NCBI GenBank assembly: GCA_944390695.1
Contig: CALXQP010000020.1
Coordinates: 1,789 to 65,788 of the forward strand
DNA: 64,000 nt
Source: an uncultured Clostridia bacterium
GTDB taxonomy: Bacteria; Bacillota; Clostridia; TANB77; CAG-508
Reading direction: 5' to 3'
Shown here: piece after piece, positions 3,079 to 42,464 of the stretch
Layout of the letters: each line of letters begins with the position of its first letter
Numbering within the stretch: the stretch's first letter is position 1
The notes under the pieces: model-generated
Databases searched by the model: none
Seen by the model: only the letters and a program-made list of their open reading frames with translations
What the model was told of the DNA's origin: nothing
Position numbers and translations under genes: made by a program

Positions 3079-3456
3079 TTATATATTTCTATATTCTTTT
3101 ACTTTTTTATATGCAAATATTGCAATTACTATTAATGCAAATATTGCTACACCTACTACTGTATTTTCTGCAAGACCAGCTTCTGGTAAATTAGTTTCAT
3201 AATTGTTAGCTGGTGGTGTTTGTTCTTCATTAGTACTTGTATTATTATTATTTTGGTTTGCATTAGTATTTGTATTATTTGTATTGTTTGTATTATTATT
3301 TGTACTATCATTAGGCTCTAATTGATCAGTTGTATCTTCAAAGAAATCAAGCCCCTCATCACTATCTGTTAAGGCAAATACATTTGTTGATACTGACATT
3401 AATACAATTCCAACTACTAAAACTAATATTAATTTAAAAATTCTTTCTTTTTTCAT
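3079..3456 (-). CDS. Small sortase-substrate-like surface protein (signal peptide, N/T-rich low-complexity region, LPEAG motif, TM helix, basic tail)
   Basis: 125 aa. The C-terminus NLPEAGLAENTVVGVAIFALIVIAIFAYKKVKEYRNI has cell-wall sorting-signal architecture. The N-terminus looks like a signal peptide. Confidence 0.55.
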   Translation of the reverse strand: MKKERIFKLILVLVVGIVLMSVSTNVFALTDSDEGLDFFEDTTDQLEPNDSTNNNTNNTNNTNTNANQNNNNTSTNEEQTPPANNYETNLPEAGLAENTVVGVAIFALIVIAIFAYKKVKEYRNI

Positions 3457-4814: not shown

Positions 4815-4889
4815 TGGCTGGGGTGGTAGGATTCGAACCTACGCATCGATGGGTCAGAGCCATCTGCCTTACCGCTTGGCTACACCCCA
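4815..4889 (-). tRNA. tRNA-Gln (anticodon CUG)
   Basis: Reverse complement reads TGGGGTGTAGCCAAGCGGTAAGGCAGATGGCTCTGACCCATCGATGCGTAGGTTCGAATCCTACCACCCCAGCCA. Acceptor stem is 7 bp, the T-loop is GGTTCGAATCC, the anticodon loop is CTCTGAC (CTG) and CCA is encoded. Resembles the Bacillus tRNA-Gln body (AGCCAAGCGGTAAGGC). Confidence 0.85.
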
Positions 4890-7059: not shown

Positions 7060-7156
7060 AAAAAGAGAACCGGCACCAAATTAGCAAAACAGCCCAAACC
7101 AGCTGGCCAAGCGAAAAAGAAGCAAAAAGGCAAAAAGAGAACCGGCACCAAATTAC
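7060..7156. repeat. Dispersed intergenic repeat family A (two direct cores AAAAAGAGAACCGGCACCAAATTA separated by a GC-rich module)
   Basis: Cores at 7060-7083 and 7124-7156 flank the spacer gcaaaacagcccaaaccagctggccaagcgaaaaagaagc. Same family as the copies at 12346, 16190, 21265 and 29955. The second core supplies the TAA stop of the VanW gene. Confidence 0.7.
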
Positions 7157-7890
7157 CCTATTTTAAAAAGCTTAGCAGTAACATTAGTAGGAGAATTTTC
7201 CATCACAATTTTAATCGTATTAGAAGTATTATTTTTAAACTTAAAATCATAAGCACCATAAGAAACAGCAGCATCATTTCCATCTTGAATATATGGAACA
7301 TGCCCACTATGTTTATGTCTTTCCACAACTTCAAGTTCATGGACTTTCAAAACCGCATTATATAAAGTAGTGCTAACCTGGCAATTTCCGCCTCCAAGCC
7401 CCTGCTCTTTTTTGCCTTCTACATAAATATCTGCTTTTTCATATCCTTTATCAGTAGTAGCCTTTCCAACAACTTTCTCAAAAGAAAAAGTTTCACCTGG
7501 CGCAATTTCACAATTAGTTAATCTTTGGCAAGTTATAGTAATATTATTTTGTCTTTCTTCATCTTTATTGTATATTTTAGTAGAAAAATTAGCTATTTCA
7601 GTTTCTTTTTTAGATGAAGTCTCTTTTCCTGGTTTATTAGTAGTTGAATTATTTGATATATTATCATCTTTACCGTTTATATCAGTAGTTTTATCATCTT
7701 TTTTTTCAGCACTACCTTCATTTTTAAAATCATCTTTATTACTTGTAGTAGTGCCGCTTCTCTGAGCTTGATAATTCGAATTATTAGTTCCTTGTTCTGA
7801 ATTATTTGTACTATTCCTTGAACTAAACCACCACCAAGCACCTCCAGTAATTAATGTTAAAACTACCCCTATCACAACATATTTCTTCAT
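7153..7890 (-). CDS. VanW domain-containing protein (N-terminal TM anchor)
   Basis: 245 aa. GETFSFEKVVG...GGGNCQVSTTLYNAVLKVHELEVVERHKHSGHVPYIQDGNDAAVSYG matches VanW family conserved blocks. N-terminal hydrophobic helix. Confidence 0.75.
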   Translation of the reverse strand: MKKYVVIGVVLTLITGGAWWWFSSRNSTNNSEQGTNNSNYQAQRSGTTTSNKDDFKNEGSAEKKDDKTTDINGKDDNISNNSTTNKPGKETSSKKETEIANFSTKIYNKDEERQNNITITCQRLTNCEIAPGETFSFEKVVGKATTDKGYEKADIYVEGKKEQGLGGGNCQVSTTLYNAVLKVHELEVVERHKHSGHVPYIQDGNDAAVSYGAYDFKFKNNTSNTIKIVMENSPTNVTAKLFKIG

Positions 7891-7917
7891 TTTTTCCTCC
7901 TTTCACAACTCAATAGA

Positions 7918-10137
7918 TTATGAACTTATTTCATATGCTTTTCTCAATTTTTCTATTTTTTTAATCTGTTCATTTTCATAATCAATTTCTTGTTGTGCAT
8001 TTCTTCTATAAACATCAATTGTAAACTCTCTTTTAACTGATCCATCTTGAGAAGTTACGATAATTGTAATCTTATTATTGCCATCTACAATATTTTCATT
8101 CCCAAAAATCTCTGATTTTGCATTTTCATTTTCTGGAATAGCCAAAATATTAAGTTTAGTAATATTATGTGATACTTCTGTGCTATAATTAGTAATAGAA
8201 TTATCAAATGGCACATTAAATAAAGCATTTTCAATAGCTAGAGTCTCCAAATTCGTATTTTTAGCTTCTAAAATTGTTCCATCATTTTGAGCAGCCTCTA
8301 CCAATTTAGCATTATCTATTAATTGAGCGTCATCTACTATATCTAGGGATTGAGCACTATCTACTCTATCTACAAACTGTTCAATTATTTGTAAGCCCAA
8401 AATATGTCGTTGAATTAACAATAAATCAACTGAAGTAGGCTTATTTCCATTTTTTCTAACATTTGAAGCCTTAACAAAAATATCATCTAATTTTTGAATC
8501 TCCAAAATATGTCTTTGTAAAACCAATAAATCAACACTATTAATTTTTCCATCACCATTTGAATCTCCATATAAAATAACATTATATTCTTTCAAAACAC
8601 TTCCATTTTGTTTAAAGCGAACTTTGCAGCCTGTGCCAACCAAATCGCTCTCATTAAGCACTTTATCATTTAGATTAACTATTTCGACATCAATATTAGT
8701 AGCTGAATTAGCAGCAAGTTCAGCCTCAATTTCTTTTTTTAGATTTGAAACAGAATTTGCTTTATAATTTAAACCTGTAACTTCTGAATCTGCCCAGTTT
8801 AACTCATTCTCAGTATTTTCAAGCACTTCAGATACATATTTTTGGCTTATATAACCTATAATTCCATTTTCTAAAATGACTTTATCCCATTTGTCCCCAG
8901 ACTGCTTGCCTTTCAAAATCCTCGTCATTTTGGCTTGAATTGGAACAGTTGTTATAATTTCATATGAAGTACTTGGGCCAGTTCTTATATTTACAGTATT
9001 AGCATTACACATTACTTTTGAATTATCTTGTACAAAATCATTTTTATTTATATTTGGACTATCTGCAGGAATAGTTGGCATATTATTATAAATAGGAATA
9101 ATAAATGAAATTGACGAATCTAGCATCCCCACTTTTTGATATCCATTATAAATAGATTTTGACTCACTATATGGTGCCAAAACATTTGTCATATATTGAT
9201 GCCAAAACAAGCCATCACCATTTGTATCAATAACATCAAATTTCTGTAGATAAACTGTGTTTTGCCCAACATTTATATAACTAGAACCAATAAAAATTCC
9301 ACCACCACTAATTGCCTTATCTTTATTATTCCATGGAATTAAATATTTTCTTTTAGTAGATTCATTTGCACCTTTGCCATCTCTTGCATATCTTAAGCCA
9401 TTTTTGATTGCCCCCATTGGTTCAGCTGAACTTGTAGCACCTATATTATAAAAATTGTATAACCCTTCAAATCCACTTACTGTACCACTTATAGAACCAT
9501 GTGTCAAAAATGGTCCAACCTCTTGTTTTATGCGAGATGCTAAATGATATGAACTTACAGATGATGTTTTCGCAGCTTTTAAAATCAAATCAGAATATCT
9601 TTCACTCATAGAAATATTGTTTCCATTACTATCAAAATATGAAACTTGTTTTTGATAAAATTCTGTTCCATATAAAATTTTTTCAATTGCTAATAAATCA
9701 TTTGTATGCTCATCATAAGATAATCCTTCGAATTGAAACAATCGTACTTCATTTAAGAAATTTCTAGGATCCATGCAATATTCAACTGCCTGTTTAGAAC
9801 TATCTACCCAACCTGCATCAACTTCCACGTTATACTGTCCAGGCGTAGTATTTTTCCAAGAATCTGAATAATTTAATGGTACCAAATTTTTTCCAAATAC
9901 ATTTTCTTCTTTTATAACATAATTCCAATCCAAACCAGTATATAATGGTATAAATTTCCAATTCGGATGTTTTTTTGCAAGCTCTCTTAAATATGGCTGA
10001 TAATCACTCGGAAACTTGTCAATTCCACCAGCTGAACTTGCTCCATTTACACTAAAATACAAAAATATCAAACCACTTATTAATATAACCAAAATTGTAA
10101 TGAAAATATATTTTTTCTTTTTACCAAATCTCTTCAT
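7918..10137 (-). CDS. Multidomain cell-wall hydrolase: glucosaminidase (GH73-like) + SH3b + type-I dockerin + C-terminal Ig-like domain, N-terminal TM/signal
   Basis: 739 aa. YNFYNIGATSSAEPMG...ISGGGIFIGSSYI resembles the Glucosaminidase/GH73 fold. SH3b-like segment VNIRTGPSTSYEIITTVPIQAKMTRIL...GYISQKYV. Dockerin segments are GDSNGDGKINSVDLLVLQRHIL (canonical Ca loop D-x-N-x-D-G-x-I-N-x-x-D) and NGNKPTSVDLLLIQRHIL (degenerate). Confidence 0.7.
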   Translation of the reverse strand: MKRFGKKKKYIFITILVILISGLIFLYFSVNGASSAGGIDKFPSDYQPYLRELAKKHPNWKFIPLYTGLDWNYVIKEENVFGKNLVPLNYSDSWKNTTPGQYNVEVDAGWVDSSKQAVEYCMDPRNFLNEVRLFQFEGLSYDEHTNDLLAIEKILYGTEFYQKQVSYFDSNGNNISMSERYSDLILKAAKTSSVSSYHLASRIKQEVGPFLTHGSISGTVSGFEGLYNFYNIGATSSAEPMGAIKNGLRYARDGKGANESTKRKYLIPWNNKDKAISGGGIFIGSSYINVGQNTVYLQKFDVIDTNGDGLFWHQYMTNVLAPYSESKSIYNGYQKVGMLDSSISFIIPIYNNMPTIPADSPNINKNDFVQDNSKVMCNANTVNIRTGPSTSYEIITTVPIQAKMTRILKGKQSGDKWDKVILENGIIGYISQKYVSEVLENTENELNWADSEVTGLNYKANSVSNLKKEIEAELAANSATNIDVEIVNLNDKVLNESDLVGTGCKVRFKQNGSVLKEYNVILYGDSNGDGKINSVDLLVLQRHILEIQKLDDIFVKASNVRKNGNKPTSVDLLLIQRHILGLQIIEQFVDRVDSAQSLDIVDDAQLIDNAKLVEAAQNDGTILEAKNTNLETLAIENALFNVPFDNSITNYSTEVSHNITKLNILAIPENENAKSEIFGNENIVDGNNKITIIVTSQDGSVKREFTIDVYRRNAQQEIDYENEQIKKIEKLRKAYEISS

Positions 10138-10268
10138 TTCAGACCTCTTTACTTCACTATATTTTTCATATCTGCCTTTAAATTTTTTAATTTAACCAAA
10201 ATTTAAAACTATTTATTTCTCTATTTTTATCATATCTGCCACTTTAATTTTTTATCTTTAATAAAATT

Positions 10269-11036
10269 TCAAACTTCTTTAGCTTTCACAATAATTCTTT
10301 TTTGAGAATCTAAAGTACAAGTAATTAATGTAACTTCTCTTTCATTATAAGTTACAGGCTCAAGGCAACTAACATCTTTAGGCGAAACTTTTTCTATTGA
10401 AAAAACTTCATATTCAACCTTTCCCACATCTTTATCAGTCAAGAAAAGCTTGTCCCCAATTTTCAATTTTTTTAAATTTCTAAACATGTTTTTATTTATA
10501 AAATTATGACCTGCAATACAGCAATTTCCTATCCTATTAGGTTCAACACCCCAAAATTTAGTAACAGAAATATTTAAAGCACTAACTGAATAATTTTTTA
10601 ATACATTTGTTTCTAAATTTATAGCCGGTATTTCTAATTTTGCACAAACATCGTAACCTCTATAAGTAGCAGCAAATTCTTCTTTAGGATATTTTTTTGC
10701 AACCATCTTATTTGCCTGCGTATTTGACTCTTCATTTTTATTTTTCACTTTTTCATTATTTTCATTATTGCTTGATTCTTTATTTTCCTCATTTTTTGCA
10801 TTATTACTTGATTTATTATTTCCATTATTAGTTAAATTATTTGTAGTAAAATTTTGATCTATTTTAATAGTTTCATATTCATTTTTTCTTTCGACCTCCA
10901 TAGGTACATATCTATAATATTTTCTCACAATCCAAAAAGATAAAATTAAAATTAATATCAATATTAAATTAACAAAAATGTTTTTAGCCAAATGGTTTTT
11001 CAGCCATCTCTTATCTACTTTCATTTTCAGTCTCAT
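10269..11036 (-). CDS. Sortase (SrtA/class D-like, TLITC active site) with N-terminal TM and N/S/E/K-rich linker
   Basis: 255 aa. Catalytic His in CIAGHNF and Cys in REVTLITCT, plus conserved Arg downstream. Paralog of the sortase at 40648-41271. The true start may be the internal MKVDK. Confidence 0.8.
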   Translation of the reverse strand: MRLKMKVDKRWLKNHLAKNIFVNLILILILILSFWIVRKYYRYVPMEVERKNEYETIKIDQNFTTNNLTNNGNNKSSNNAKNEENKESSNNENNEKVKNKNEESNTQANKMVAKKYPKEEFAATYRGYDVCAKLEIPAINLETNVLKNYSVSALNISVTKFWGVEPNRIGNCCIAGHNFINKNMFRNLKKLKIGDKLFLTDKDVGKVEYEVFSIEKVSPKDVSCLEPVTYNEREVTLITCTLDSQKRIIVKAKEV

Positions 11037-11223
11037 TCCTTCATCTTTCCTTTATGTGACATACAAAATTGTAATTATTTTCAAACTTTCTCGTATATAA
11101 GCAAATAAGAAATGGAATCAATCACATTTCTTATTACTATTTTTCACTTATTGCCAAAATCTAAATTAATTAAAAAAATTGTATATCATCTGTTATTCTA
11201 AATTGATTTTAAAATTATCTATT

Positions 11224-12276
11224 TTACTTGCTTTTTACATCAAAATAAAAAATAATTCCTGCTGCACTAATTAATACGATTAAGATACCCATTAAAACGA
11301 ATATATTATTGCCTGTTTTAGGTAACTCTTCAGGTTTTTCTTCAACTTGTTGATTTCCTTCAGTTGTAGGTTGCTGATTCTCATTTTCGCTATTTCCCGG
11401 TTGATTCTCTTCAGGTTGTTCGGTTTGCTGCTCTTCTGCAACTTTAAAATTAAAAGTTTTTTCCGCAATAGTTGCATCAGAATTGTCTCTATCTATCAAT
11501 TTCAAAGTAATTGTATAATCACCAGCATCACTAAATAATGCTTTAACATTTAATTCTTGCAAAACATCTTTTCCACCAATTTTATAGCCTTGAGGATCAC
11601 CCCAACCACTTTGAATAATGTCTTGTTCTGCTGAAGTGTCTGCATTAATTCCTGTCAATTTTACACTAGCATTTGCTGGAGTTGTTGCTTCTGCAATCAA
11701 TCTTGCATGTTCATAGTAATGTCCCATTGGTGAAGAATAAGAAAGTTTCATTTCCTTTTCTTGACCTTTAACAATATCACCTGTATGAGTCAAACTTATC
11801 ACATAATCTTTGTACTCTGGCTCGACTGTCAAATTTTCAACCATAGGCATTGTAATATCATCATAAGTCTCTGAAGCATCTGCATTTGACAAACCTTCTC
11901 CTGTCACAGAAAATTCTGTTGGATTTGATGTTGTAATATCACTTTTTGCTCTAAATGTAACACTCATATTTTCTCTCGCATTAGTTCCTCCTGATGAATC
12001 ATGAAAAACCACTCTTACTTTGTCTGTAGTATCATTTGCTGTTCCACCATCAGCAGATACATATTCAAATATCTTGTTGTCATAAGCAACATCAAATGTG
12101 TATGCACCTAATTGTTTACCAAAATCAATTGTTATTTTTACTTCTTCTCCTGGTCTTACAGTTGTTTTATCAACTTTTGTACTTATAGTATCTAATGATA
12201 ATGCATAACTTTTTCCAGAAAAAATAAATATCATAAGCAATATAAAACTTAAAATTATACTAAATATCTTTTTCAC
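11224..12276 (-). CDS. LPXTG-anchored surface protein with N-terminal cohesin-like domain
   Basis: 350 aa, GTG start with SD AAGGAGG. Signal peptide. VDKTTVRPGEEVKITIDFGKQLGAYTFDVAYDNKIFEYVS matches the cohesin β-sandwich signature. C-terminal Q/E/P-rich stalk, then LPKTG + TM + KSK tail. Confidence 0.7.
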   Translation of the reverse strand: MKKIFSIILSFILLMIFIFSGKSYALSLDTISTKVDKTTVRPGEEVKITIDFGKQLGAYTFDVAYDNKIFEYVSADGGTANDTTDKVRVVFHDSSGGTNARENMSVTFRAKSDITTSNPTEFSVTGEGLSNADASETYDDITMPMVENLTVEPEYKDYVISLTHTGDIVKGQEKEMKLSYSSPMGHYYEHARLIAEATTPANASVKLTGINADTSAEQDIIQSGWGDPQGYKIGGKDVLQELNVKALFSDAGDYTITLKLIDRDNSDATIAEKTFNFKVAEEQQTEQPEENQPGNSENENQQPTTEGNQQVEEKPEELPKTGNNIFVLMGILIVLISAAGIIFYFDVKSK

Positions 12277-25286: not shown

Positions 25287-25952
25287 ATGGAAAATAATGA
25301 TAAATTAGACTTAATTTTGAATAAATTAAGCCAAAATGACGATAGAATTGATTCAATTTTAAATAAGTTAATCCAAAATGATAATAGAATTTATTTAATC
25401 TGTGAAAATTTAAATTCTATGTCTGGACAAATTGATTCCTTAAATAAGCAAATTAATTCTATGTCGAGACAAATTGATTCCTTAAATAAGCAAATTAATT
25501 CTATGTCTGAACAAATTGATTCCTTAAATAAGCAAATTAATTCTATGTCCTTAAAATTAGAAGAACATGATAAGAAATTTGATATAGTCTTCGAAAAATT
25601 AGAACAACATGATAAAGAGTTCAAGGCTATAAATCAAAAACTTGATTTTGCTTTTGAAAAATTGGAACAACATGATAAAGAGTTCAAGGCTATAAATCAA
25701 AAACTTGACTTTGCATTTGAAAAATTGGAACAACATGATAAAGAATTCAAAACTATAAATCAAAAATTTGATATAGTATTTAATGAATTAGACAAACATT
25801 CTTGCCAATTATCAAATATTAATAGAAGATTTGATTTAACATTATTAGAACTAAAAAAAGATTTTAACACTATTGAGCAAAAATATAATGAAACAGATAA
25901 AAAAGTAGAAGATAATACTTTAAGAATTTCATTCTTAGAAGATGCCATTTAA
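25287..25952 (+). CDS. Coiled-coil protein built from tandem repeats
   Basis: 221 aa, SD AAGGAGG. 14-aa units SMSxQIDSLNKQIN ×3 and 20-aa units FEKLEQHDKEFKAINQKLDFA ×3. Heptad-like pattern throughout. Confidence 0.6.
   Translation: MENNDKLDLILNKLSQNDDRIDSILNKLIQNDNRIYLICENLNSMSGQIDSLNKQINSMSRQIDSLNKQINSMSEQIDSLNKQINSMSLKLEEHDKKFDIVFEKLEQHDKEFKAINQKLDFAFEKLEQHDKEFKAINQKLDFAFEKLEQHDKEFKTINQKFDIVFNELDKHSCQLSNINRRFDLTLLELKKDFNTIEQKYNETDKKVEDNTLRISFLEDAI
25417..25790 (+). repeat. Intragenic tandem DNA repeats (3×42 bp, then about 3×60 bp)
   Basis: ctatgtc[tg]gacaaattgattccttaaataagcaaattaatt repeated at 25417, 25459 and 25501. ttgaaaaattggaacaacatgataaagagttcaaggctataaatcaaaaacttgactttgc repeated from about 25590. 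Confidence 0.7.
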
Positions 25953-31595: not shown

Positions 31596-31862
31596 ATGTC
31601 AAAATTATTAAAAATTATTTTTATTTTAATATTAGTATTAATTATCACAGCTTCTTGTTCAAATGTATTTGCAGCTGTTGATATGAATTTAGGAAGTAAT
31701 AGTTCAACTACAGAAAATACACCTTCTTCAACATTATCTTCAACAGTTACAACTTCTGATTTTGATTTAGAATTAACTAATATTTTGTGTATTTGCCTAA
31801 TTGTTGTTGGTGTTTTACTAATTTTATTGGGAATCGCGATTTTAATAAGATTAAAAAGATAA
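31596..31862 (+). CDS. Hypothetical small secreted/membrane protein (signal peptide, S/T-rich, C-terminal TM + RLKR)
   Basis: 88 aa, SD AGGAGG. Same architecture as the 3079 and 15656 proteins. Confidence 0.5.
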   Translation: MSKLLKIIFILILVLIITASCSNVFAAVDMNLGSNSSTTENTPSSTLSSTVTTSDFDLELTNILCICLIVVGVLLILLGIAILIRLKR

Positions 31863-35406: not shown

Positions 35407-35850
35407 TTATATAGCTACATATTCTCCTATTATTTTAATCAAATATTTATCATGTATATACTCATAAGATTTACCTGTATCTGATCCAAAATCTTTTTTT
35501 TCTATTTCTAATGATAACTGCTCTTCATTTGCATTAATAAGTACTGCTTTTCCTGTTTCTTCATAATTTTTCTTTTTACTTTCATACTCTTCTTTATCTT
35601 CGAATTGTTCAAATATTTTTACTGCATTTAAAATATTATTTTCAAAAGAATATTCTATTACTTTATTATATGCTGAATTACATTTTATTACAAGTTTCTC
35701 TCCTTCTATTGTTCTCATATTATTATTTTCAGAATTGCTTATACATTTACTTACAAAATACATTCCAAAAAATATTATAATAATCATTAGTATTATTATG
35801 ACTATTTTTATGAAATTTATATTTTTCTTTTCCTCACTGTGTTTACTCAT
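35407..35850 (-). CDS. Hypothetical membrane-anchored protein (last gene of sortase cassette 2)
   Basis: 147 aa. N-terminal TM IVIIILMIIIIFFGMYFV and a charged C-terminal domain. Confidence 0.45.
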   Translation of the reverse strand: MSKHSEEKKNINFIKIVIIILMIIIIFFGMYFVSKCISNSENNNMRTIEGEKLVIKCNSAYNKVIEYSFENNILNAVKIFEQFEDKEEYESKKKNYEETGKAVLINANEEQLSLEIEKKDFGSDTGKSYEYIHDKYLIKIIGEYVAI

Positions 35851-35873
35851 TATTTATCTCCTATACTTTAAAC

Positions 35874-35900
35874 AAAAGAACAGGTAAAACCTGTTCTTTT
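35874..35900 (-). terminator. Intrinsic terminator after the giant adhesin gene
   Basis: Stem AAAAGAACAGG-taaaa-CCTGTTCTTTT followed by U-tract TTTTGTTT on the minus transcript. Confidence 0.6.
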
Positions 35901-35911
35901 GCTCTACATAA

Positions 35912-38900
35912 TTATCTTTCTATAAAATATCTTATAATTACACTATTATCAGTAATTTTTGTTGTATTATTTTGGTCTGCATTATAAGCATTTATATCAA
36001 AAGTTAATTGTTTAGTATTTGCATTATAAGCTACATAATTATTTGGTAGAGTTGAACAACTAAATAACTCTTCTCCATTATATTCAACAACTAATTTGTT
36101 TTCTGAATTTATCACTAAATTCTTTTCTAATTGAATTGTAATTTTTCCTGAAGTTGTTGTAACTGGTTTTTGAGGATTCATCTCTTCTTCTAAGTTTCTA
36201 AATATGTCTGCTAATGATTCTGCATCTTCTGCAGTTCTAACTTTTCCATCAGAAGATATATCTCCTAGAACTTCATAAGCATCTGAATCTGGGTCAATAG
36301 CATCTGAACCAAATCCTATTGAATAGATTGTTGCACTTCTCTTATTTTCTCCATCTTTTATTTTAGTAGCAGTGTTTGTAATATTATTTTTTGAGTTATC
36401 TTCATATCCATCAGTTCTAGTTGATGTTGGGTCTCCATCTCCTAAGAATATAACAACATTACTATTATTTGGATAAGTTGCTACAAGGCCATTATTTTTA
36501 TCATATATAACATCATAAGTTTTATCTAATGCTGCTTTTATATGTGTTCCATATCCTGAAGTAGCTGTTCCAATATCAATATTTCCTATTTCTGTTATTA
36601 AATCTTGATAATTTTTATTTGTTGCTGTAGTTTGGTCATTGTTTTTACCAAAAGTTAATACTCTTGTTCCAACATATTTGTTTCTATTACTTATTGATTT
36701 TTGGTTAAATGTTACAACAGTAATAGTTGCTTTAGAATCTGGATTTTTGTATACTTCTTTAATAAATTCTTGAGCTGCTTTTTTAGCTGCTTCTAATCTT
36801 GTTCCTTGTGATACATTTTTACCCCATATACCTGTACTCCATTGTTCTTCACATCCTTCAGGACAATACTCTCCCCACCAATTATAACTATGTTCATGTG
36901 TACATTTTACAAAAGTATAAATCTTTTCATTCATACTTGAAGATAGGTCTATTACTAATACTATATTATTAGCATCTTTTCCTTGTTCTCCTGGTTTTGT
37001 TCCTACTTCTACACCACTAATTTCATTTATTTTTGTTGTTACTTTATCTGTTTTATTTTCTGGTGTAGATGATGGTGTATCATCACTTAATTTGGCTGTA
37101 TTTTCAATTGTTTTACCAATTTGATCTGCATTTATTTTAACTGTAACTGTTAAATTAGTTATTCCATTATTTGCTGGAACTTCTATATTTGACCATGTAA
37201 CTACTCCATTTGCATATATACCACCATTATCTGATCTAACATATGTTACACCTTCTGGTAATATATCTGTAACTGTCGTTACTGTTCCTCTTGCTTTTCC
37301 AGTATTTGTTAATTTTATTGTATATGTTACTTCTTCTCCAACTTTTGCAGTCTTTGGAGCTAATTTTTCTATACTAATATCTGGTTTTCCATAATATACT
37401 CTAATTATATTATTTGCTGGATCTGCTGATATTGTCAAAGGTGTTCCTTCTATTCTATCTAATTGATATCCATTTGGCATATTTGATGTATCAATATCTT
37501 CAGCATTTATTTGACTTCCTAATAATGCTTTTAGACCTTGGCTTGTTTCAAATGGTTCTGTTTCTCCATCTTTATAATATTCTACAGTATAAGAAATTTC
37601 ATCTTTTACATAATATACTTCTATTATATTATTTTCTGGATTTGATGTTATTGTTAAAGGTGTTCCTTCTATTCTATCAAGTTTATATCCTGCTGGCATA
37701 TTTGATGTATCAACATCTTCTGCATTTATTTGGCTTCCAAATAATGCTTTTAGATCTTGATTTACTTCAAATGGTTCTGCTTCTCCATCTTTATAATATT
37801 TTACTGTATATGAGAATTCATCTCTTATATAATATACTTCAATGATATTTCGAGTTGGATCTGCTGTTACTTTTAGTGGTAATCCACTTGTTTTGTCAAA
37901 CTTATATCCATCTATATTTTTATCTGTATATGTACTAATAATAGAATCAAATTCTGCTTTTAAATTATCAGTTTTACTATCATCTTGAATTCCATCATAA
38001 TAGTACTTAACAGTATAATCTATCATTGCTTTTTCATAATAGAAATTGATTTCATTTCCTTCTAATTTTACTGTTATTGTTTGTTCTGTTGGATCAACTT
38101 TGTTATATCCAGGTATTTCTATTGCACTTTCTGTTATTTCACTATTAAATACTAATCCTGTTAATTCTTTGCTTTCTGCTAATTTTGTTGTTGTATCTTT
38201 TAAATAGTAATTTACTATTCCTGTTAATCCTGTTACTGGTGTATAGTAGAAGTTTATTTCATTTCCTTCTAATCCTACTGTTATTGTTTGTTCTGTTGGG
38301 TCAACTTTTTCATATCCAGGTATTTCTATTGCACTTTCTGTTACTTGGCTATTAAATACTAATCCTGTTAATTCTTTGCTTTCTGCTAATTTTGTCGTTG
38401 TTCCTTCTAAGTAGTAATTTACTATTCCTGTTAATCCTGTTACTGGTGTATAATAGAAGTTTATTTCATTTCCTTCTAATCCTACTGTTATTGTTTGTTC
38501 TGTTGGATCAACTTTTTCATATCCAGGTATTTCTATTGCATTTTCTGTTACTGTGCTATTAAATACTAATCCTGTTAATTCTTTGCTTTCTGCTAATTTT
38601 GTTGTTGTATCTTTTAAGTAGTAATTTACTATTCCTGTTAAATCTGTTCTTGGTTCATAGTAGAAATTAATTTCATTTCCTTCTAATTCTACTGTTATTG
38701 TTTGCTCTATTGGAGCTAACTTATTATATCCAGGAATATCTATTGCACTTTCTGTTACTGTGCTATTAAATACTAATCCTGTTAATTCTTTACTTTCTGC
38801 TAATTTTGTTGTTGTGTCTTTTAAATAGTAATTTACTATTCCTGTTAAATCTGTTCTTGGTTCATAATAGAAATTGATTTCATTTCCTTCTAATTTTACT

Positions 38901-40618
38901 GTTATTGTTTGCTCTGTTGGACCAAATTTATTATATCCAGGTATTTCTATTGCACTTTCTGTTACTTGGCTATTAAATACTAATCCTGTTAATTCTTTAC
39001 TTTTTGCTAATTTTGTTGTTGTATCTTTTAAATAGTAATTTACTATTCCTGTTAAGTCTGCTCTTGGTGTCCATTTTGCATAATATGTTGTTGTTCCTGC
39101 AGGATAATTTTCTGGTAAATTTGTAACTTTTTCTCCAGTAAATTCTGGATCAGCATACCATCCGTCAAATACATATCCTGGTCTTTCTGTTGTTGGCATA
39201 TTTCTATCTGTTATTGGCTCTCCTTTTATTCCTGTAAGGTCCTCAACTTCAGAACCACCATTTTCTTCAAATACTATATAAGATTCAACTTTTGTTGTAT
39301 CTGTATTAGTATCTGTTCCACCAACATTTGCTATATTTATTATTTCACTATCAATACTTGTTACTCTAACTTTAAAGCTTCTTGTTATTGTTTCATTTGC
39401 AGCTAAAGATATTGACCATGCAACTGTATCTTTTTCTTCTGATACTATTGCATCACCTTCTGCTGACACAAATTCTGTTCCTGTTGGAACTTTGTCTGAT
39501 ATATATGTTTTTCCTTCACCATCACCTGTATTTGATACAGTTATAGTATATGTAATAATATCACCTATTCTTGCAGCTTCAATTCCTTCTGTAATTTCTT
39601 CATTATCTTGAATTCTCGTTATAACACTTGATTTATTTGCTATTATTATTGATGTTTTTGTTTCTTCTTCTCCATCATCACCAGTACTCTTTTCTCCATT
39701 TGCTATAGCTGTATTTAGAATTGTTCCTGTTAATGGAACTAATACTCCATTTTCATCTAATTTATTTTCATTAACATTTACTGTGAATCTAGCAACTACT
39801 GTTTCTCCTGCTGGAACTGTTACAACCCATTTAACACCTTCAACTACATTTTCAGAGTTAACAGTTGTTTTTGTTCCTACAACTTCATTTGCTATAACTG
39901 CATCTTCAATAGATACAAAAGTAGTGTTTTCTGGTATTTTATCTGTTATTTCAATATTTTTTACATCTACTTCACTATTATTTGTTACAGATATAACATA
40001 TGTTAAATCTTGACCAGCATATACAAAATTGTCTCCTCCAACACCTGTTATTACTGATTTTCTAACATCTAATTGTGGTTTTTCTACATCTAATACAGTT
40101 GGTTGATCAACTTTAATTGCCATTGGTTCCCACCAATCGAAAAATTGTCTTGATACTATTCTCTCAACTTCTTCATATCTTGTAATTGTTGTTTCACCAA
40201 CTTCATTTACATCTGTCCCTGTTGTTATTTCTGCATTTTCATCATCATTATTATTTTCTGTATTACCTTCGTTGTTTGCTGTATTATCATTATTTACAGC
40301 TTCATTATCTGCATTATCATTGTTTTCATTATCATTATTGTTTTCTGATTCTTCACCTTCATTTTGAACAGGTGTTTCTGGATTTTCAGTTTCATTACCT
40401 ATATTAGGATCTGTATCTGAATTATCATTATTTTCAGTTTGATCTCCATCTACAGGTCGATTTCCATCATTTTCTTGTTCTGGAGTTGTTGTTGAAGTTT
40501 GGTCTCCATCAACAGCGGCTGTCTCTCCTCTAGTGTACAAGAATACTCCTACCGATATTCCAGCAATAAACAATAATACTACTACTGTGATAATAGCAAT
40601 AATACTCTTTTTGCTCAT
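35912..40618 (-). CDS. Giant surface adhesin: N-terminal TM anchor, acidic linker, DUF11 repeat domains, Listeria-Bacteroides repeat, 5+3 MucBP-like repeats, C-terminal von Willebrand factor A (VWA) domain
   Basis: 1568 aa. The MIDAS motif VLVIDLSSSM marks the VWA domain. DUF11-like blocks YTITVSNTGDG and VTYTIKLTNTGKARG. GYVFDGWYADPEF fits the Flg_new repeat. Five roughly 93-aa and three roughly 92-aa YY-containing β-repeats. No C-terminal LPXTG. Confidence 0.8.
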   Translation of the reverse strand: MSKKSIIAIITVVVLLFIAGISVGVFLYTRGETAAVDGDQTSTTTPEQENDGNRPVDGDQTENNDNSDTDPNIGNETENPETPVQNEGEESENNNDNENNDNADNEAVNNDNTANNEGNTENNNDDENAEITTGTDVNEVGETTITRYEEVERIVSRQFFDWWEPMAIKVDQPTVLDVEKPQLDVRKSVITGVGGDNFVYAGQDLTYVISVTNNSEVDVKNIEITDKIPENTTFVSIEDAVIANEVVGTKTTVNSENVVEGVKWVVTVPAGETVVARFTVNVNENKLDENGVLVPLTGTILNTAIANGEKSTGDDGEEETKTSIIIANKSSVITRIQDNEEITEGIEAARIGDIITYTITVSNTGDGEGKTYISDKVPTGTEFVSAEGDAIVSEEKDTVAWSISLAANETITRSFKVRVTSIDSEIINIANVGGTDTNTDTTKVESYIVFEENGGSEVEDLTGIKGEPITDRNMPTTERPGYVFDGWYADPEFTGEKVTNLPENYPAGTTTYYAKWTPRADLTGIVNYYLKDTTTKLAKSKELTGLVFNSQVTESAIEIPGYNKFGPTEQTITVKLEGNEINFYYEPRTDLTGIVNYYLKDTTTKLAESKELTGLVFNSTVTESAIDIPGYNKLAPIEQTITVELEGNEINFYYEPRTDLTGIVNYYLKDTTTKLAESKELTGLVFNSTVTENAIEIPGYEKVDPTEQTITVGLEGNEINFYYTPVTGLTGIVNYYLEGTTTKLAESKELTGLVFNSQVTESAIEIPGYEKVDPTEQTITVGLEGNEINFYYTPVTGLTGIVNYYLKDTTTKLAESKELTGLVFNSEITESAIEIPGYNKVDPTEQTITVKLEGNEINFYYEKAMIDYTVKYYYDGIQDDSKTDNLKAEFDSIISTYTDKNIDGYKFDKTSGLPLKVTADPTRNIIEVYYIRDEFSYTVKYYKDGEAEPFEVNQDLKALFGSQINAEDVDTSNMPAGYKLDRIEGTPLTITSNPENNIIEVYYVKDEISYTVEYYKDGETEPFETSQGLKALLGSQINAEDIDTSNMPNGYQLDRIEGTPLTISADPANNIIRVYYGKPDISIEKLAPKTAKVGEEVTYTIKLTNTGKARGTVTTVTDILPEGVTYVRSDNGGIYANGVVTWSNIEVPANNGITNLTVTVKINADQIGKTIENTAKLSDDTPSSTPENKTDKVTTKINEISGVEVGTKPGEQGKDANNIVLVIDLSSSMNEKIYTFVKCTHEHSYNWWGEYCPEGCEEQWSTGIWGKNVSQGTRLEAAKKAAQEFIKEVYKNPDSKATITVVTFNQKSISNRNKYVGTRVLTFGKNNDQTTATNKNYQDLITEIGNIDIGTATSGYGTHIKAALDKTYDVIYDKNNGLVATYPNNSNVVIFLGDGDPTSTRTDGYEDNSKNNITNTATKIKDGENKRSATIYSIGFGSDAIDPDSDAYEVLGDISSDGKVRTAEDAESLADIFRNLEEEMNPQKPVTTTSGKITIQLEKNLVINSENKLVVEYNGEELFSCSTLPNNYVAYNANTKQLTFDINAYNADQNNTTKITDNSVIIRYFIER
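36820..39060 (-). repeat. Intragenic tandem repeats (5 × about 279 bp, then 3 × about 276 bp) encoding MucBP-like modules
   Basis: Near-identical DNA units are visible, for example ...catttccttctaatcctactgttattgtttgttctgttgg... recurring every roughly 279 bp between about 37660 and 39060. Confidence 0.75.
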
Positions 40619-40647
40619 TATTTATTCCCCCCTAAATACCAATATTA

Positions 40648-41271
40648 CTATAAAATTTCTTTAGCTTTTAATATAAGTCTTTGTTTATTTCCATTTGTAC
40701 ATGTAATTAATGTTACTTCTCTTACGAGTTCATCTTTTGCTAATAAAATATTTACATCATTAGGGTCTGTTACAAAGATATCATAAATTGAATATTGAAT
40801 TGTTTGACCTTTTAAGTCTGTTAATTCTACTATATCTCCAATTTTTAATTTTTTTGTTTTTCCAAACATTGTACCATCTCTGTTATTATGACCTGCTATT
40901 GATAAATTTCCATAATCATTTACATTTTCGCCCCAATATTTTATTATGGATAATTTCATTGGTTTTTTTGCATTTTCCGGGTCAATTTCTCCAATTTCTA
41001 ATATTGGATATTCTATATCTATTTGCGGAATTTTTACTATTCCAATCACTTTATACCCTTTATATTCTAATTGAATTTGCTCCCCTGATTCTTCTGGATT
41101 ACTAGAAAAATCTATATTACTAAAAGCAGCTACTGCTTCTTGAGTTTCTTTCTCATTTTTTTGATTACTACCATATTTATAAACTATCATGCCAATAATT
41201 ACAATTGCTGCTATTAATAACATATAAAAAATTGCTTTGTAAATTTTTAGTTCAATACTATTTTTCTTCAT
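40648..41271 (-). CDS. Sortase (TLITC active site), paralog of the 10269-11036 sortase
   Basis: 207 aa. N-terminal TM, IAGHNNR catalytic His and REVTLITCT catalytic Cys. Aligns block-for-block with the other sortase (YKGYKV/YRGYDV, KKLKIGD, I[IL]KAKE). Confidence 0.8.
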   Translation of the reverse strand: MKKNSIELKIYKAIFYMLLIAAIVIIGMIVYKYGSNQKNEKETQEAVAAFSNIDFSSNPEESGEQIQLEYKGYKVIGIVKIPQIDIEYPILEIGEIDPENAKKPMKLSIIKYWGENVNDYGNLSIAGHNNRDGTMFGKTKKLKIGDIVELTDLKGQTIQYSIYDIFVTDPNDVNILLAKDELVREVTLITCTNGNKQRLILKAKEIL

Positions 41272-42310
41272 CTTTTTTGCTTATTTTTTTCATTCTAATA
41301 AATATTACTATTACTAGAACTGCTATTATTCCTAATGCTACAAATAATGCAATACTATCATATGTTATTGGTAGTCTTGTTGTTTCTTCAGTTGCAACTT
41401 TTACTATATCTTTATTTTCTACATCTTTTTCATCAGCTGTTAAAAATTGAATATCTAATGTAGTTTCACCATTTGCAACCTTTTTTAATAATACTATGTA
41501 TCTATCATTTTCTTTAGATTCTTCTGGTTGTTTAATCATCATGTTTTCTACTTTGTTCCATTTAGCTTGATCAGCTACATTTGCTAATTTTTCATTAAAT
41601 TCTTCTACAAATTTAATTTTTTCATACATTTCCATTGAATCATATTCATTTTGAACTTTTAAAGCTAATTCTTCTAAGTTATTGTATGAATCTGTGCTTG
41701 GCAATTTAACCATTTCATACCAATATTCTGCATTTTCATCATCTAATATTTGCACATATCCTACATAAGTAGTTTCTTTAACACCTTCTACTTCTTCTTC
41801 TTTTAATTTTTCTAGAATTTCAGTATCTTGAGTATCTGCTATTTTTACTTCTATATTTGATGTTAAATTTTCTACATTTTCAATTTCTTTGCTTGTTAAA
41901 GCTTTGCTTAAATCTAATTGGATTCCTTCTAGAATTAAATTTTCATTTTCATCTTTTGCCCACATATAAATTGGTTTATTTTCTTCTAAATTTTCGTCTT
42001 TAGTTAAATTATTGTAAGTTTCTGCATCTAAAAATGCTACTTGATTTCCGTTCTCTCCCAAATCTGAGATTGAATTAATAAAAGATAAATCCATTCCATT
42101 TGGATCCGCATTTTCATTATTTGTAAATGCGTATTTAAAATTTTGTGTTGATATCCCTTTTATGTAAATTATATATCCTTGATTTGTTTCATTATTCATT
42201 GCATTTATTATAGAGATATCTTCATTTGAAGCAAAAACTGTAATTGGCATTAATGATATAAATAATATCATTACTACTATACCAACCAGTTTGGCGGTAA
42301 ATTTTTTCAT
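41258..42310 (-). CDS. Secreted acidic protein with C-terminal sorting-signal-like tail (LPITY + TM + KK); putative substrate of the adjacent sortase
   Basis: 350 aa. Signal peptide and an E/N/K-rich body. C-terminus TTRLPITYDSIALFVALGIIAVLVIVIFIRMKKISKKDEEK. Overlaps the sortase gene start by 14 nt. Confidence 0.55.
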   Translation of the reverse strand: MKKFTAKLVGIVVMILFISLMPITVFASNEDISIINAMNNETNQGYIIYIKGISTQNFKYAFTNNENADPNGMDLSFINSISDLGENGNQVAFLDAETYNNLTKDENLEENKPIYMWAKDENENLILEGIQLDLSKALTSKEIENVENLTSNIEVKIADTQDTEILEKLKEEEVEGVKETTYVGYVQILDDENAEYWYEMVKLPSTDSYNNLEELALKVQNEYDSMEMYEKIKFVEEFNEKLANVADQAKWNKVENMMIKQPEESKENDRYIVLLKKVANGETTLDIQFLTADEKDVENKDIVKVATEETTRLPITYDSIALFVALGIIAVLVIVIFIRMKKISKKDEEK

Positions 42311-42422
42311 TTATGATCCTCCCCCTCATAATTTTATTATTTTACGCGAACATTATATTACAATTTTTAAAATTTGTAAACAGTTTTTGGAAAATTTGTT
42401 TACAAAATTTACATAAAACGTA

Positions 42423-42459
42423 AAAAACAAGTTATTTTCTTGCAAAATAACTTGTTTTT
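42423..42459 (-). terminator. Intrinsic terminator of glgP
   Basis: Stem AACAAGTTATTTT / AAAATAACTTGTT followed by TTTTTTAC on the minus transcript. Confidence 0.6.
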
Positions 42460-42464
42460 ATCTT

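Follow-up and report, generated by a model that had tools for sequence, protein, structure and literature searches.

Can a protein that carries Tyr where a sortase signal is expected to carry Gly be the partner of the sortase encoded next to it, and is the gene cluster around it a repeated genetic template? Textbook sortase signals read LPXTG, with Ala, Ser and Asn as small-residue exceptions, and the protein considered here ends in LPITY. The window, i.e., the whole stretch of DNA that was analysed, comprises 64,000 nucleotides of a contig from an uncultured Clostridia bacterium (GCA_944390695.1, CALXQP010000020.1), and all coordinates are positions in it. The original prediction described two sortase cassettes in the window, and the second of these, cassette 2, is the subject of this study.

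Organization of the locus

The four open reading frames described earlier were all present, and they are listed here with the other features of the locus.

35407-35850, minus strand: gene of a 147-aa protein with an N-terminal membrane anchor, outside the conserved core
35866..35910, minus strand: terminator-like hairpin directly after the stop codon of the giant gene
35912-40618, minus strand: gene of the giant surface protein (1568 aa)
35912..39268, minus strand: variable cargo of the giant (residues 451-1568), with Flg_new, repeats, the third DUF11 stretch and VWA
39269..40618, minus strand: conserved N-terminal module of the giant (residues 1-450), with matches in 90-100% of 32 related giants
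40648-41271, minus strand: gene of the putative dedicated sortase (207 aa), anchored in the membrane by its N-terminus
41258-42310, minus strand: gene of the putative sortase substrate (350 aa)
41261..41353, minus strand: hydrophobic segment (residues 320-338) and basic tail RMKKISKK… of the substrate
41354..41374, minus strand: sorting motif L313-P-I-T-Y317-D-S319, read directly
just 5' of the ATG at 42310, minus strand: ribosome-binding site GAGGGGGAGG, read directly
42352..42380, minus strand: promoter-like site TTTACA-17-TATAAT, the best match of the region (11/12 positions), from a class of matches no more frequent than chance predicts in this AT-rich DNA (62 vs 54 +/- 7 expected)
42412..42462, minus strand: terminator-like hairpin of the upstream glgP (RNA fold -14.9 kcal/mol, z = -5.8), followed by a U-tract

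The glgP hairpin separates cassette 2 from the upstream transcription unit. At the other end, the hairpin behind the giant gene (RNA fold -21.1 kcal/mol, z = -7.0) was equalled in stability by 0 of 200 shuffled sequences and is followed by UUUUGUUU after its stem; this is probably the end of a three-gene unit. The predicted 14-nt overlap of the substrate and sortase reading frames was confirmed (ATGAAGAAAAATAG) and recurs with the same length in 24 of 62 related loci, which is consistent with coupled translation, and translation of the sortase is probably coupled to that of the substrate. When Rfam was searched at the gathering threshold for a riboswitch or other RNA upstream, the sole match was one tRNA (4818-4889).

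Conservation across related loci

Synteny was assessed in 67 substrate copies from the window and 65 species-level genomes. A full-length sortase (at least 180 aa) followed within 300 nt downstream in 62 of the 67 copies, three more copies had a shorter downstream reading frame that also matched sortase, and a giant protein of 1250-2823 aa was usually next after the sortase where the contig continued. In two database entries the substrate and sortase reading frames were fused. The sortase was more conserved than the substrate in all 61 loci compared (61/61), with mean identities of 69% and 44%, respectively. No other LPxT[YF]D protein was encoded within +/-10 kb in any locus, and the 207-aa sortase may have other substrates elsewhere in the genomes.

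The search for conserved gene order, which had been proposed for four genes, thus holds for three. The 147-aa protein had no family match above a curated cut-off, and phmmer and jackhmmer searches against all reading frames of the 65 related loci found only the protein itself. Its gene also lies behind a strong terminator-like hairpin, and the proposed template of four genes found no support. In other clades, the giant gene is often followed by genes of small proteins that have a basic N-terminus and a single membrane segment, none of them resembling the 147-aa protein. In summary, a three-gene surface operon of substrate, sortase and giant adhesin is conserved in an uncultured low-GC gut Clostridia lineage that occurs in humans, mice and ruminants, and at present every protein of the operon is annotated as hypothetical.

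The comparison with cassette 1 (7153-12276) leads to a similar division. The two sortases of the window are paralogs, as proposed, with 39% identity over 143 aa (E = 1e-29) and all four expected blocks (IAGHN, KKLKIGD, REVTLITCT, and KAKE) visible in the alignment. In contrast, cassette 1 encodes a Cohesin (Pfam) and LPKTG substrate with a Dockerin_1 protein as partner, its large protein is Dockerin/SH3/Cadherin-like as opposed to DUF11/VWA, and its fourth gene encodes VanW as opposed to an orphan. Substrates, large proteins and fourth genes are unrelated, so that the idea of one template present twice stands for the sortases and falls for the rest. Among relatives of cassette 1, the adjacency of substrate and sortase was the only constant.

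The putative substrate and its sorting signal

The 350-aa protein begins with a signal peptide (cleavage …VFA|SNE). A beta-sandwich covers residues 30-205 and a helical hairpin residues 207-248; behind a second beta region (258-299), a disordered linker leads to the sorting signal. It is FN3/Ig-like and had no match to any Pfam family. Its C-terminus reads …EETTRLPITYDS-IALFVALGIIAVLVIVIFI-RMKKISKKDEEK, and the AF2 model places a helix at residues 318-349. The predicted arrangement of TTRLPITYDS, a transmembrane segment and RMKK is therefore present, and the three-part architecture of a cell-wall sorting signal, in which a pentapeptide is followed by about 15-20 hydrophobic residues and a basic tail (here LPITY, IALFVALGIIAVLVIVIFI, and RMKK), is kept across the family. 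An LPXTG-type signal has Gly or Ala/Ser/Asn after Thr, whereas the substrate has Tyr, encoded by TAT at 41360-41362. TIGR01167, the LPXTG anchor model, gave no match to the substrate at E <= 0.01, while it does match the cassette-1 protein (20.9 bits, cut-off 15.9).

The substrate family comprises at least 311 clusters at 50% identity, with LP[IV]T-[Y/F/G]-[D/E]-[S/N] as consensus signal. Among 150 representatives at 50% identity, 130 signals were readable, with Y at P1' in 58, G in 45, F in 17, S in 3 and A in 3, and with D or E at P2' nearly always. Closer to the window, the best 120 homologs carried LPITYDS in 113 cases and LPITGDN in the other 7. In 75 aligned homologs L313, P314, I315, T316 and D318 were invariant and Y317 was at least 90% conserved, compared to a mean column identity of 62% for the protein. 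On a tree of 284 substrate cores P1' changed at least 27 times, with Y as the inferred root state, and the rare states S (TCA) and A (GCT) fall on the single-step codon path TAT>TCN>GCN>GGN. The position has switched between aromatic residues and Gly many times, and an aromatic P1' is usual in the family and probably its ancestral state. The atypical Tyr noted earlier is hence a real and conserved family trait, which interconverts with the canonical LPITG at the same position. Our literature search returned no paper that pairs a sortase with LPXTY, or with any of LPITY, LPVTY and LPVTF.

The putative dedicated sortase

The 207-aa protein belongs to the sortase superfamily (PF04203, 84 bits, cut-off 26.6; TIGR01076, 62 bits, cut-off 39.35) and has an intact catalytic triad, with H128 (IAGHN), C191 (LITC) and R198 each conserved in at least 95% of 61 family sortases, and a short Cys-to-Arg loop (TNGNKQ). 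It scored below every class-specific NCBIfam cut-off: for class D with 32.7 vs 165 bits (NF033746) and 51.8 vs 140 bits (NF058671, specific for LPxTATN), for class E with 44.4 vs 160, class B with 20.7 vs 153.75, class F with 16.7 vs 166 and class GN with 30 vs 158 bits. Neither the pilus-type class C model (NF033745) nor pilin substrates pointed to class C, and no class A model was among the listed matches. Since the enzyme lies under all class cut-offs, properties of a characterised class are not transferable to it. The closest solved structure was that of CpSrtD (4d70, E = 9.5e-14).

Sortase residues that track Y or G in the substrate were sought and rejected, as every discriminating column follows phylogeny; a Y-type subclade nested in the G clade (L031/L033/L038) retains the sortase residues of the G clade. 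Because no column tracks Y vs G independently of phylogeny, tolerance at P1' is read from the evolution of the substrate and not from the enzyme.

The giant surface protein

A hydrophobic segment lies at the N-terminus of the 1568-aa protein, and the C-terminus lacks a sorting signal. Matches in Pfam and NCBIfam comprised three DUF11 stretches (82.2 bits for DUF11 and 98.3 bits for TIGR01451, both above cut-off), DUF7927, Flg_new and VWA_2, in agreement with its description as a modular, adhesin-like protein that lacks LPXTG. The VWA_2 match (residues 1220-1395) is marginal (28.8 bits, cut-off 27), and a Cys/His-rich insert splits it; the MIDAS motif D-x-S-x-S was read directly as VIDLSSS. The tandem repeats are real, with 5.0 copies of 207 nt (69 aa) and 2.1-2.4 copies of 219 nt (73 aa), but the MucBP label given to them had to be abandoned, as Pfam MucBP did not match either repeat even at E <= 10. 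PDB sequence searches gave no informative match for the repeats and no relatives for the C-terminal 352 aa.

The N-terminal module consists, in this order, of the hydrophobic segment, an FL.D+G.TEA motif, an acidic/Asn-rich spacer of ~100 aa, an ETTITR…W.P segment (residues 141-165) that is conserved yet predicted to be disordered, and two Ig-like DUF11/DUF7927 domains. Its AF2 model (pLDDT 84.9) matched the Ig-like stalk domains of SspB and PrgB in Foldseek (E = 8e-9). Matches covering residues 451-1050 of the cargo came from at most 6% of the 32 related giants, and those covering the third DUF11 stretch (about 1100-1200) from up to 22%. Judged by this distribution, the VWA domain and the repeats are lineage-specific cargo.

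Proposed function of the operon

With the sequence anatomy, the motif conservation, the synteny, the catalytic triad and the operon signals observed, we consider it likely that the locus encodes a sortase dedicated to one substrate, whose sorting signal is a new natural variant, and that both genes are co-transcribed with that of a modular adhesin. The 350-aa protein would be exported by Sec, and the hydrophobic segment and basic tail at its C-terminus would retain it in the membrane. The sortase encoded next to it, which is membrane-anchored and resembles CpSrtD, would recognise LP[IV]T-[Y/F/G]-[D/E], cut the substrate, most likely after Thr, and transfer it to peptidoglycan. Such an enzyme would be tolerant at P1', where Tyr, Phe and Gly seem to interconvert freely in evolution, and its specificity would reside in LP[IV]T and an acidic P2', separating it from the other sortase of the cell (LPKTGN). 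We infer that the wall-anchored substrate works with the co-transcribed giant, whose conserved N-terminal stalk would bear species-specific adhesive cargo; this putative functional link is suggested by synteny and similar evolutionary rates.

A more specific version of this partnership, which we regard as tentative and rather unlikely, is that the 350-aa protein, anchored by the sortase, serves as a receptor in the wall and thereby keeps the giant adhesin at the surface of the cell. Here, the substrate may bind the intrinsically disordered segment [IV][GQ]ETT[IV].R.E…W.P of the giant, whose signal peptide may first be cleaved at the conserved G.TEA| site, and by analogy the pair may be a non-cellulosomal counterpart of the cohesin-dockerin pair of cassette 1.

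Alternatively, the aromatic-type members could be cut after Tyr or Phe (LPITY|D) and the Gly-type members after Thr. For the SrtA enzymes of S. pyogenes and S. pneumoniae, part or most of the cleavage of LPATY, LPATF and LPATL falls between P1' and P2', with ratios of standard to alternative cleavage of 2:1 for LPATY and 1:13 for LPATL in streptococcal SrtA (PMC10763551), and the residue after Y/F/G is almost always Asp or Glu, thus placing a conserved position at the alternative scissile bond. However, Listeria SrtA cuts LPATY almost only at the standard site (31:1; PMC10763551), and the 207-aa enzyme is CpSrtD-like and not class A. Moreover, the Gly-type orthologs offer no side chain for an S1 pocket, yet share the same LPIT and D context, and one register for the two types (T|x) is the simpler account. 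We therefore find this alternative improbable.

VWA-bearing tip adhesins occur in sortase-built pili, and the enzyme could accordingly be a pilus-type ligase that joins the substrate Thr to the conserved N-terminal module of the giant, either at a Lys or at the mature N-terminus, giving a covalent two-protein fibre instead of a wall-anchored monomer. The strict synteny of the three genes would fit such a ligase, as would the N-terminal module, which is the only conserved part of the giant and whose identity tracks that of the substrate; in addition, the cassette-1 sortase has its best class score against the class C model. Even so, we give this possibility little credence.

It is very unlikely that the motif is vestigial, with the 350-aa protein merely tail-anchored in the membrane and the neighbouring sortase serving substrates encoded elsewhere. 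The failure of TIGR01167 to recognise the C-terminus of the substrate would agree with this, as would the fact that Tyr at P1' is undocumented as a natural sortase signal in the literature. On the other hand, although the substrate evolves fast, its conservation is highest at LP[IV]T and the acidic residue behind it, orthologs have the canonical LPITG at the same position, and the substrate and sortase genes are adjacent in 62/67 copies, often with overlapping frames and in two entries as a single reading frame. Finally, a sequencing or assembly error for LPITG, which the original prediction had named as a possible refutation, can be dismissed, as TAT to GGN requires two substitutions, LPITYDS is found in 113/120 of the best homologs from independent NCBI/ENA/JGI/Logan assemblies, assemblies of NCBI, ENA and Logan contain the protein in identical form, and Y or F occupies the position in 75/130 family representatives.

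If the preferred reading of a dedicated sortase-substrate pair is correct, the sortase would have a recognition code of aromatic or Gly at P1' and acidic at P2', which could be of use as an orthogonal ligation tool. For protein engineering, the enzyme is a candidate for ligation orthogonal to the sortase tools now in use. As a natural test set the family is large: the presumed scissile Thr is usually followed by a bulky aromatic residue, which swaps repeatedly with Gly and precedes an acidic residue. For enzymology, it offers enzymes and peptides for probing how a CpSrtD-like sortase reads P1' and P2', and it lets one test whether the "alternative cleavage" seen in vitro has a counterpart in nature. 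For gut biology, the operon is a conserved surface module, in which an anchor protein and a sortase are combined with an adhesin whose stalk is constant and whose tip varies.

Comparison with known sortase systems

CpSrtD (4d70) is the best solved relative of both sortases of the window (E = 9.5e-14 and 1.3e-13). Its Cys-x6-Arg loop is equally short, its C-terminus (TCTN…R..VKAK) is similar, and its gene is clustered in an operon with a dedicated LPQTGS substrate (PMC4498605). Unlike the family described here, with LP[IV]T followed by Y/F/G and D/E, CpSrtD prefers the canonical Gly at P1', and the family has the block GTMFGK in place of N.(V/M)FRN after the catalytic His. Bacillus class D sortases use non-Gly signals, e.g., LPNTA in B. 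anthracis (PMC4498605), and resemble the present system in that they are dedicated enzymes, serve few substrates and have signals in which Thr is followed by a residue other than Gly (LPNTA, LPxTATN); however, their P1' is a small Ala, whereas here a bulky aromatic residue alternates with Gly.

The housekeeping signal LPQTXE of Lactiplantibacillus plantarum combines a variable P1' with a conserved acidic P2' (PMC3619620), the same logic as in LP[IV]T-x-[D/E]. In contrast to the class A housekeeping sortase of L. plantarum and its many substrates, we find a single substrate family paired with a single CpSrtD-like sortase encoded beside it, and P1' residues other than Y/F/G are rare. Cohesin scaffoldins of cellulosome-type systems are likewise sortase-anchored proteins encoded beside a secreted partner, and cassette 1 is of this kind; although cassette 2 has no cohesin or dockerin in Pfam, they are the model for its putative receptor/partner reading. 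In vitro, LPATY and LPATF are cut by class A sortases (PMC10763551), which shows that Tyr or Phe behind Thr can be accepted by a sortase. While those experiments used synthetic peptides and the natural substrates of the enzymes carry Gly, the aromatic residue is natural, conserved and probably ancestral in the family described here.

Gene content and limits of the second cassette

The second cassette, located in an AT-rich window (GC about 27%), consists of four minus-strand ORFs arranged head to tail at 35407-42310.

Features of the second cassette
42412-42462: hairpin and U-tract at the end of the upstream glgP (-14.9 kcal/mol, z = -5.8)
42352-42380: best-matching promoter-like site, TTTACA-17-TATAAT, downstream of the glgP hairpin
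41258-42310, minus strand: substrate, 350 aa, with a signal peptide and the C-terminus …EETTRLPITYDS, 19 hydrophobic residues and RMKKISKKDEEK
40648-41271, minus strand: sortase, 207 aa, overlapping the substrate gene by 14 nt (ATGAAGAAAAATAG)
35912-40618, minus strand: giant protein, 1568 aa, with an N-terminal hydrophobic segment and lacking a C-terminal sorting signal
35866-35910: 16-bp hairpin followed by UUUUGUUU, directly 3' of the giant-gene stop (-21.1 kcal/mol, z = -7.0)
35407-35850, minus strand: 147-aa protein with an N-terminal membrane segment

A strong ribosome-binding site is found downstream of the promoter-like site, and the 14-nt overlap of the substrate and sortase genes described in the original prediction was read directly. 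Since the 147-aa gene is located past the hairpin at 35866-35910, and no relatives of its product were found among the related loci, the conserved unit comprises three genes.

When one genome per GTDB species was scanned, 65 loci were recovered, every one from a MAG of uncultured Clostridia, Eubacteriales or Bacillota from the gut of humans, mice, goats or roe deer; two were complete chromosomes (1.55 and 1.70 Mb). For 62 of the 67 substrate copies (window copy included), a full-length sortase (195-250 aa) was encoded no more than 300 nt downstream, and three further copies were accompanied by a shorter sortase-matching ORF. The 14-nt overlap recurred in 24 of the 62 pairs, while most others showed a 1-nt overlap or a gap of 1-5 nt, and a protein of 1250-2823 aa usually came next where the contig continued. 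Flanking glgP was common to close relatives only, indicating that conservation of the cassette does not depend on what flanks it. The sortase was more conserved than the substrate in each of the 61 loci compared (mean identity to the window proteins 69% vs 44%), and metagenomic homologs reached 85-98% identity for the sortase and mostly 50-60% for the substrate.

Two database representatives of the substrate family, P0367 (540 aa) and P0384 (501 aa), carry one ORF spanning the substrate into the sortase, and may be either frameshift artefacts at the overlapping junction or real fusions. One genome (L052, 6538-10966) carries two tandem substrate-sortase pairs, ending in LPITGDS and LPITGDN, with a 551-aa protein with an N-terminal membrane segment between them.

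The LPITY sorting signal is a family trait

The substrate matched no Pfam family and was covered by no NCBIfam model. An AF2 model (pLDDT 76.6, pTM 0.65) showed beta-rich regions at residues 30-205 and 258-299, a helical hairpin at 207-248, a disordered linker containing LPIT at 298-316 and a terminal helix at 318-349.

The Tyr of the motif is encoded by TAT (41360-41362), two substitutions from every Gly codon. A search of 5.8 billion proteins yielded 222 relatives, and among the best 120 of these the C-terminus read LPITYDS plus a transmembrane segment in 113 and LPITGDN plus a transmembrane segment in seven; the atypical signal noted originally is thus a conserved feature of the family. Alignment of 75 sequences (mean column identity 62%) showed E309, T310, L313, P314, I315, T316 and D318 to be invariant and Y317 to be conserved at 90% or more.

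When 1.84 billion representatives clustered at 50% identity were searched with a profile, the family grew to at least 311 clusters (E <= 1e-3). Of the 130 signals readable in the best 150 clusters, 58 have Y after Thr (P1'), 45 have G and 17 have F; S and A occur three times each, and T, N, L and V once each. The next residue (P2') was nearly always D, or E chiefly after G, giving the consensus LP[IV]T-[Y/F/G]-[D/E]-[S/N]. On a neighbour-joining tree of 284 substrate cores stripped of the sorting signal, parsimony placed Y at the root and required at least 27 P1' changes, or 19 with Y and F merged, counts that may be inflated by tree error. A sortase tree of 62 loci independently gave the same pattern, with Y-type clades basal, a Y subclade nested inside the G clade and an A-type pair as sister of the large LPITYDS clade. 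At P1' in the loci, Y was encoded by TAT or TAC, G by GGN, A by GCT and S by TCA, and the rare states S and A fall on the single-step path TAT>TCN>GCN>GGN. Among the computational results, the strongest support for LPITY as a genuine sortase signal is that orthologs carry canonical LPITG at the homologous site.

The sortase matched PF04203 (84 bits) and TIGR01076 (62 bits), and scored far under all class-specific NCBIfam cut-offs (SrtD 51.8 vs 140, class C 45 vs 160, class E 44 vs 160, class D 33 vs 165). Its nearest solved structure was C. perfringens sortase D (CpSrtD; PDB 4d70, E = 9.5e-14), followed by class A enzymes near E = 1e-7. H128, C191 and R198 were kept across the family sortases. 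The block GTMFGK after the catalytic His was conserved and family-specific, whereas it reads KNMFRN in the sortase of the first cassette and NEVFRN in CpSrtD. No sortase column separated Y-type from G-type loci independently of phylogeny, suggesting that the enzyme may tolerate both residues at P1'.

A constant base and variable cargo in the giant protein

The 1568-aa protein contained three DUF11 stretches, DUF7927 and Flg_new, together with a marginal VWA_2 match in which the D-x-S-x-S motif is present. Tandem repeats of 207 nt (5.0 copies) and 219 nt (2.1-2.4 copies) were found, and their earlier description as MucBP-like is not supported by Pfam, as MucBP gave no match even at E <= 10. The N-terminal ~450 residues were matched in 90-100% of 32 related giant proteins, residues 451-1050 in at most 6%, and the third DUF11 stretch (about 1100-1200) peaked at 22%. 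By these matches, variable cargo is attached to a constant base in the giant protein, and the VWA domain and repeats are lineage-specific cargo. The predicted VWA/DUF11 adhesin holds for its DUF11 content and a marginal VWA_2.

The base consists of the hydrophobic segment, an FL.D+G.TEA motif, a ~100-aa Asn/Asp/Glu-rich spacer, the segment [IV][GQ]E[TS]T[IV].R.E…W.P and two beta-sandwich domains. Both domains were confident in an AF2 model (pLDDT 84.9), and the conserved segment 141-165 was predicted to be disordered. Foldseek related the domains to Ig-like stalk domains of Gram-positive adhesins, with the SspB C-terminal domain (2wza) and PrgB (8beg) as top matches (E = 8e-9), followed by Cna and FnBPA. 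Identity of the base module to the window tracks substrate identity.

Right after the hydrophobic segment, FL.D(K/R)G(S/T)TEA (residues 31-40; 40498-40527, minus strand) is conserved at the same position in the related loci L003-L067. It could be a signal-peptidase site, since T-E-A| fits the -3/-1 positions, and the supposedly N-anchored giant protein may therefore in fact be secreted. At two LPITADS-type loci, L027 (5725-12593) and L028 (9992-16133), the giant protein is a different one that bears a classical signal peptide (MKIENTLKKLLFILILIF…); in L027 a second sortase gene comes after it.

Residues 141-165 (40123-40197, minus strand) open with [GQ]ETTI.R…, and a (Q/E)ETT string is common to this segment and the stretch preceding LPIT in the substrate (QETTKLPIT; residues 308-319; 41354-41389, minus strand). 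From one clade to another the two strings change together; their match is too short for chance to be excluded.

Comparison with the first cassette and other proteins in the window

Genes of the first cassette (7153-12276, minus strand)
350-aa Cohesin-domain protein ending in canonical LPKTGNN, a transmembrane segment and KSK
255-aa sortase
739-aa protein with SH3_3, Dockerin_1 and Cadherin-like domains
VanW protein

As originally proposed, the two sortases are paralogs (39% identity over 143 aa, E = 1e-29), and CpSrtD is the best match of both. The notion of one four-gene template used twice was not supported, since the substrates are unrelated except for the sorting signal and the remaining genes have no common family. 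The identical 350-aa length of the first genes is a coincidence. Across seven metagenomic relatives of the first cassette, the one constant arrangement was a cohesin-LPKTG gene with the sortase gene next after it; the dockerin protein was adjacent in three, in varying order, and VanW in none. Judged from gene order and homology, what the cassettes share is thus a substrate gene with its own CpSrtD-like sortase directly downstream. The first cassette resembles a miniature pair of anchoring scaffoldin and dockerin protein from a gut Clostridium with a small genome.

Three further proteins were observed in the window.

3079-3456, minus strand: orphan 125-aa secreted protein with an Asn/Thr-rich low-complexity region, ending in NLPEAGLAEN, a transmembrane segment and KK (an LPxAG-type signal), with no adjoining sortase gene
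31596-31862, plus strand: secreted protein of 88 aa, rich in Ser/Thr, whose hydrophobic C-terminal segment and RLKR tail come without an LPXTG-like motif (…SDFDLELTN-ILCICLIVV…); a tail anchor or another kind of sorting signal is possible
25287-25952, plus strand: 221-aa protein with two near-perfect tandem-repeat sets, (Q/K)INSMS.QIDSLNK and FEKLEQHDKEFKAINQKLDFA, resembling a coiled coil and with no obvious link to its neighbours

Proposed mechanism and relation to known systems

In the most economical reading, the substrate would be exported and held by its C-terminal segment, after which the dedicated membrane sortase would cut it at LP[IV]T|x and link the product to peptidoglycan. The enzyme would be lax at P1' (Y, F or G) and take its specificity from LP[IV]T together with an acidic P2', which would keep its route distinct from the LPKTGN route served by the paralogous sortase. 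We infer that the anchored substrate may cooperate with the giant adhesin; by analogy, the cohesin-dockerin pair of the first cassette suggests a receptor/partner logic, in which docking would most obviously involve the disordered but conserved stretch of the giant protein.

Sortase, sorting signal and modular adhesin are all components of known kinds. New are a natural P1' at which aromatic residues and Gly are interchangeable, combined with an acidic P2', and a conserved three-gene module in an uncultured gut lineage; no mention of LPXTY-type signals was found in the literature searched. For streptococcal class A enzymes, part of the cleavage occurs behind the aromatic residue (PMC10763551), hence the alternative that the cut falls after Tyr or Phe (LPITY|D) rather than after Thr. 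The mechanism proposed here has three supporting precedents: CpSrtD is encoded together with its LPQTGS substrate (PMC4498605), the L. plantarum signal is LPQTXE (PMC3619620), and LPATY and LPATF are processed in vitro by class A sortases (PMC10763551).
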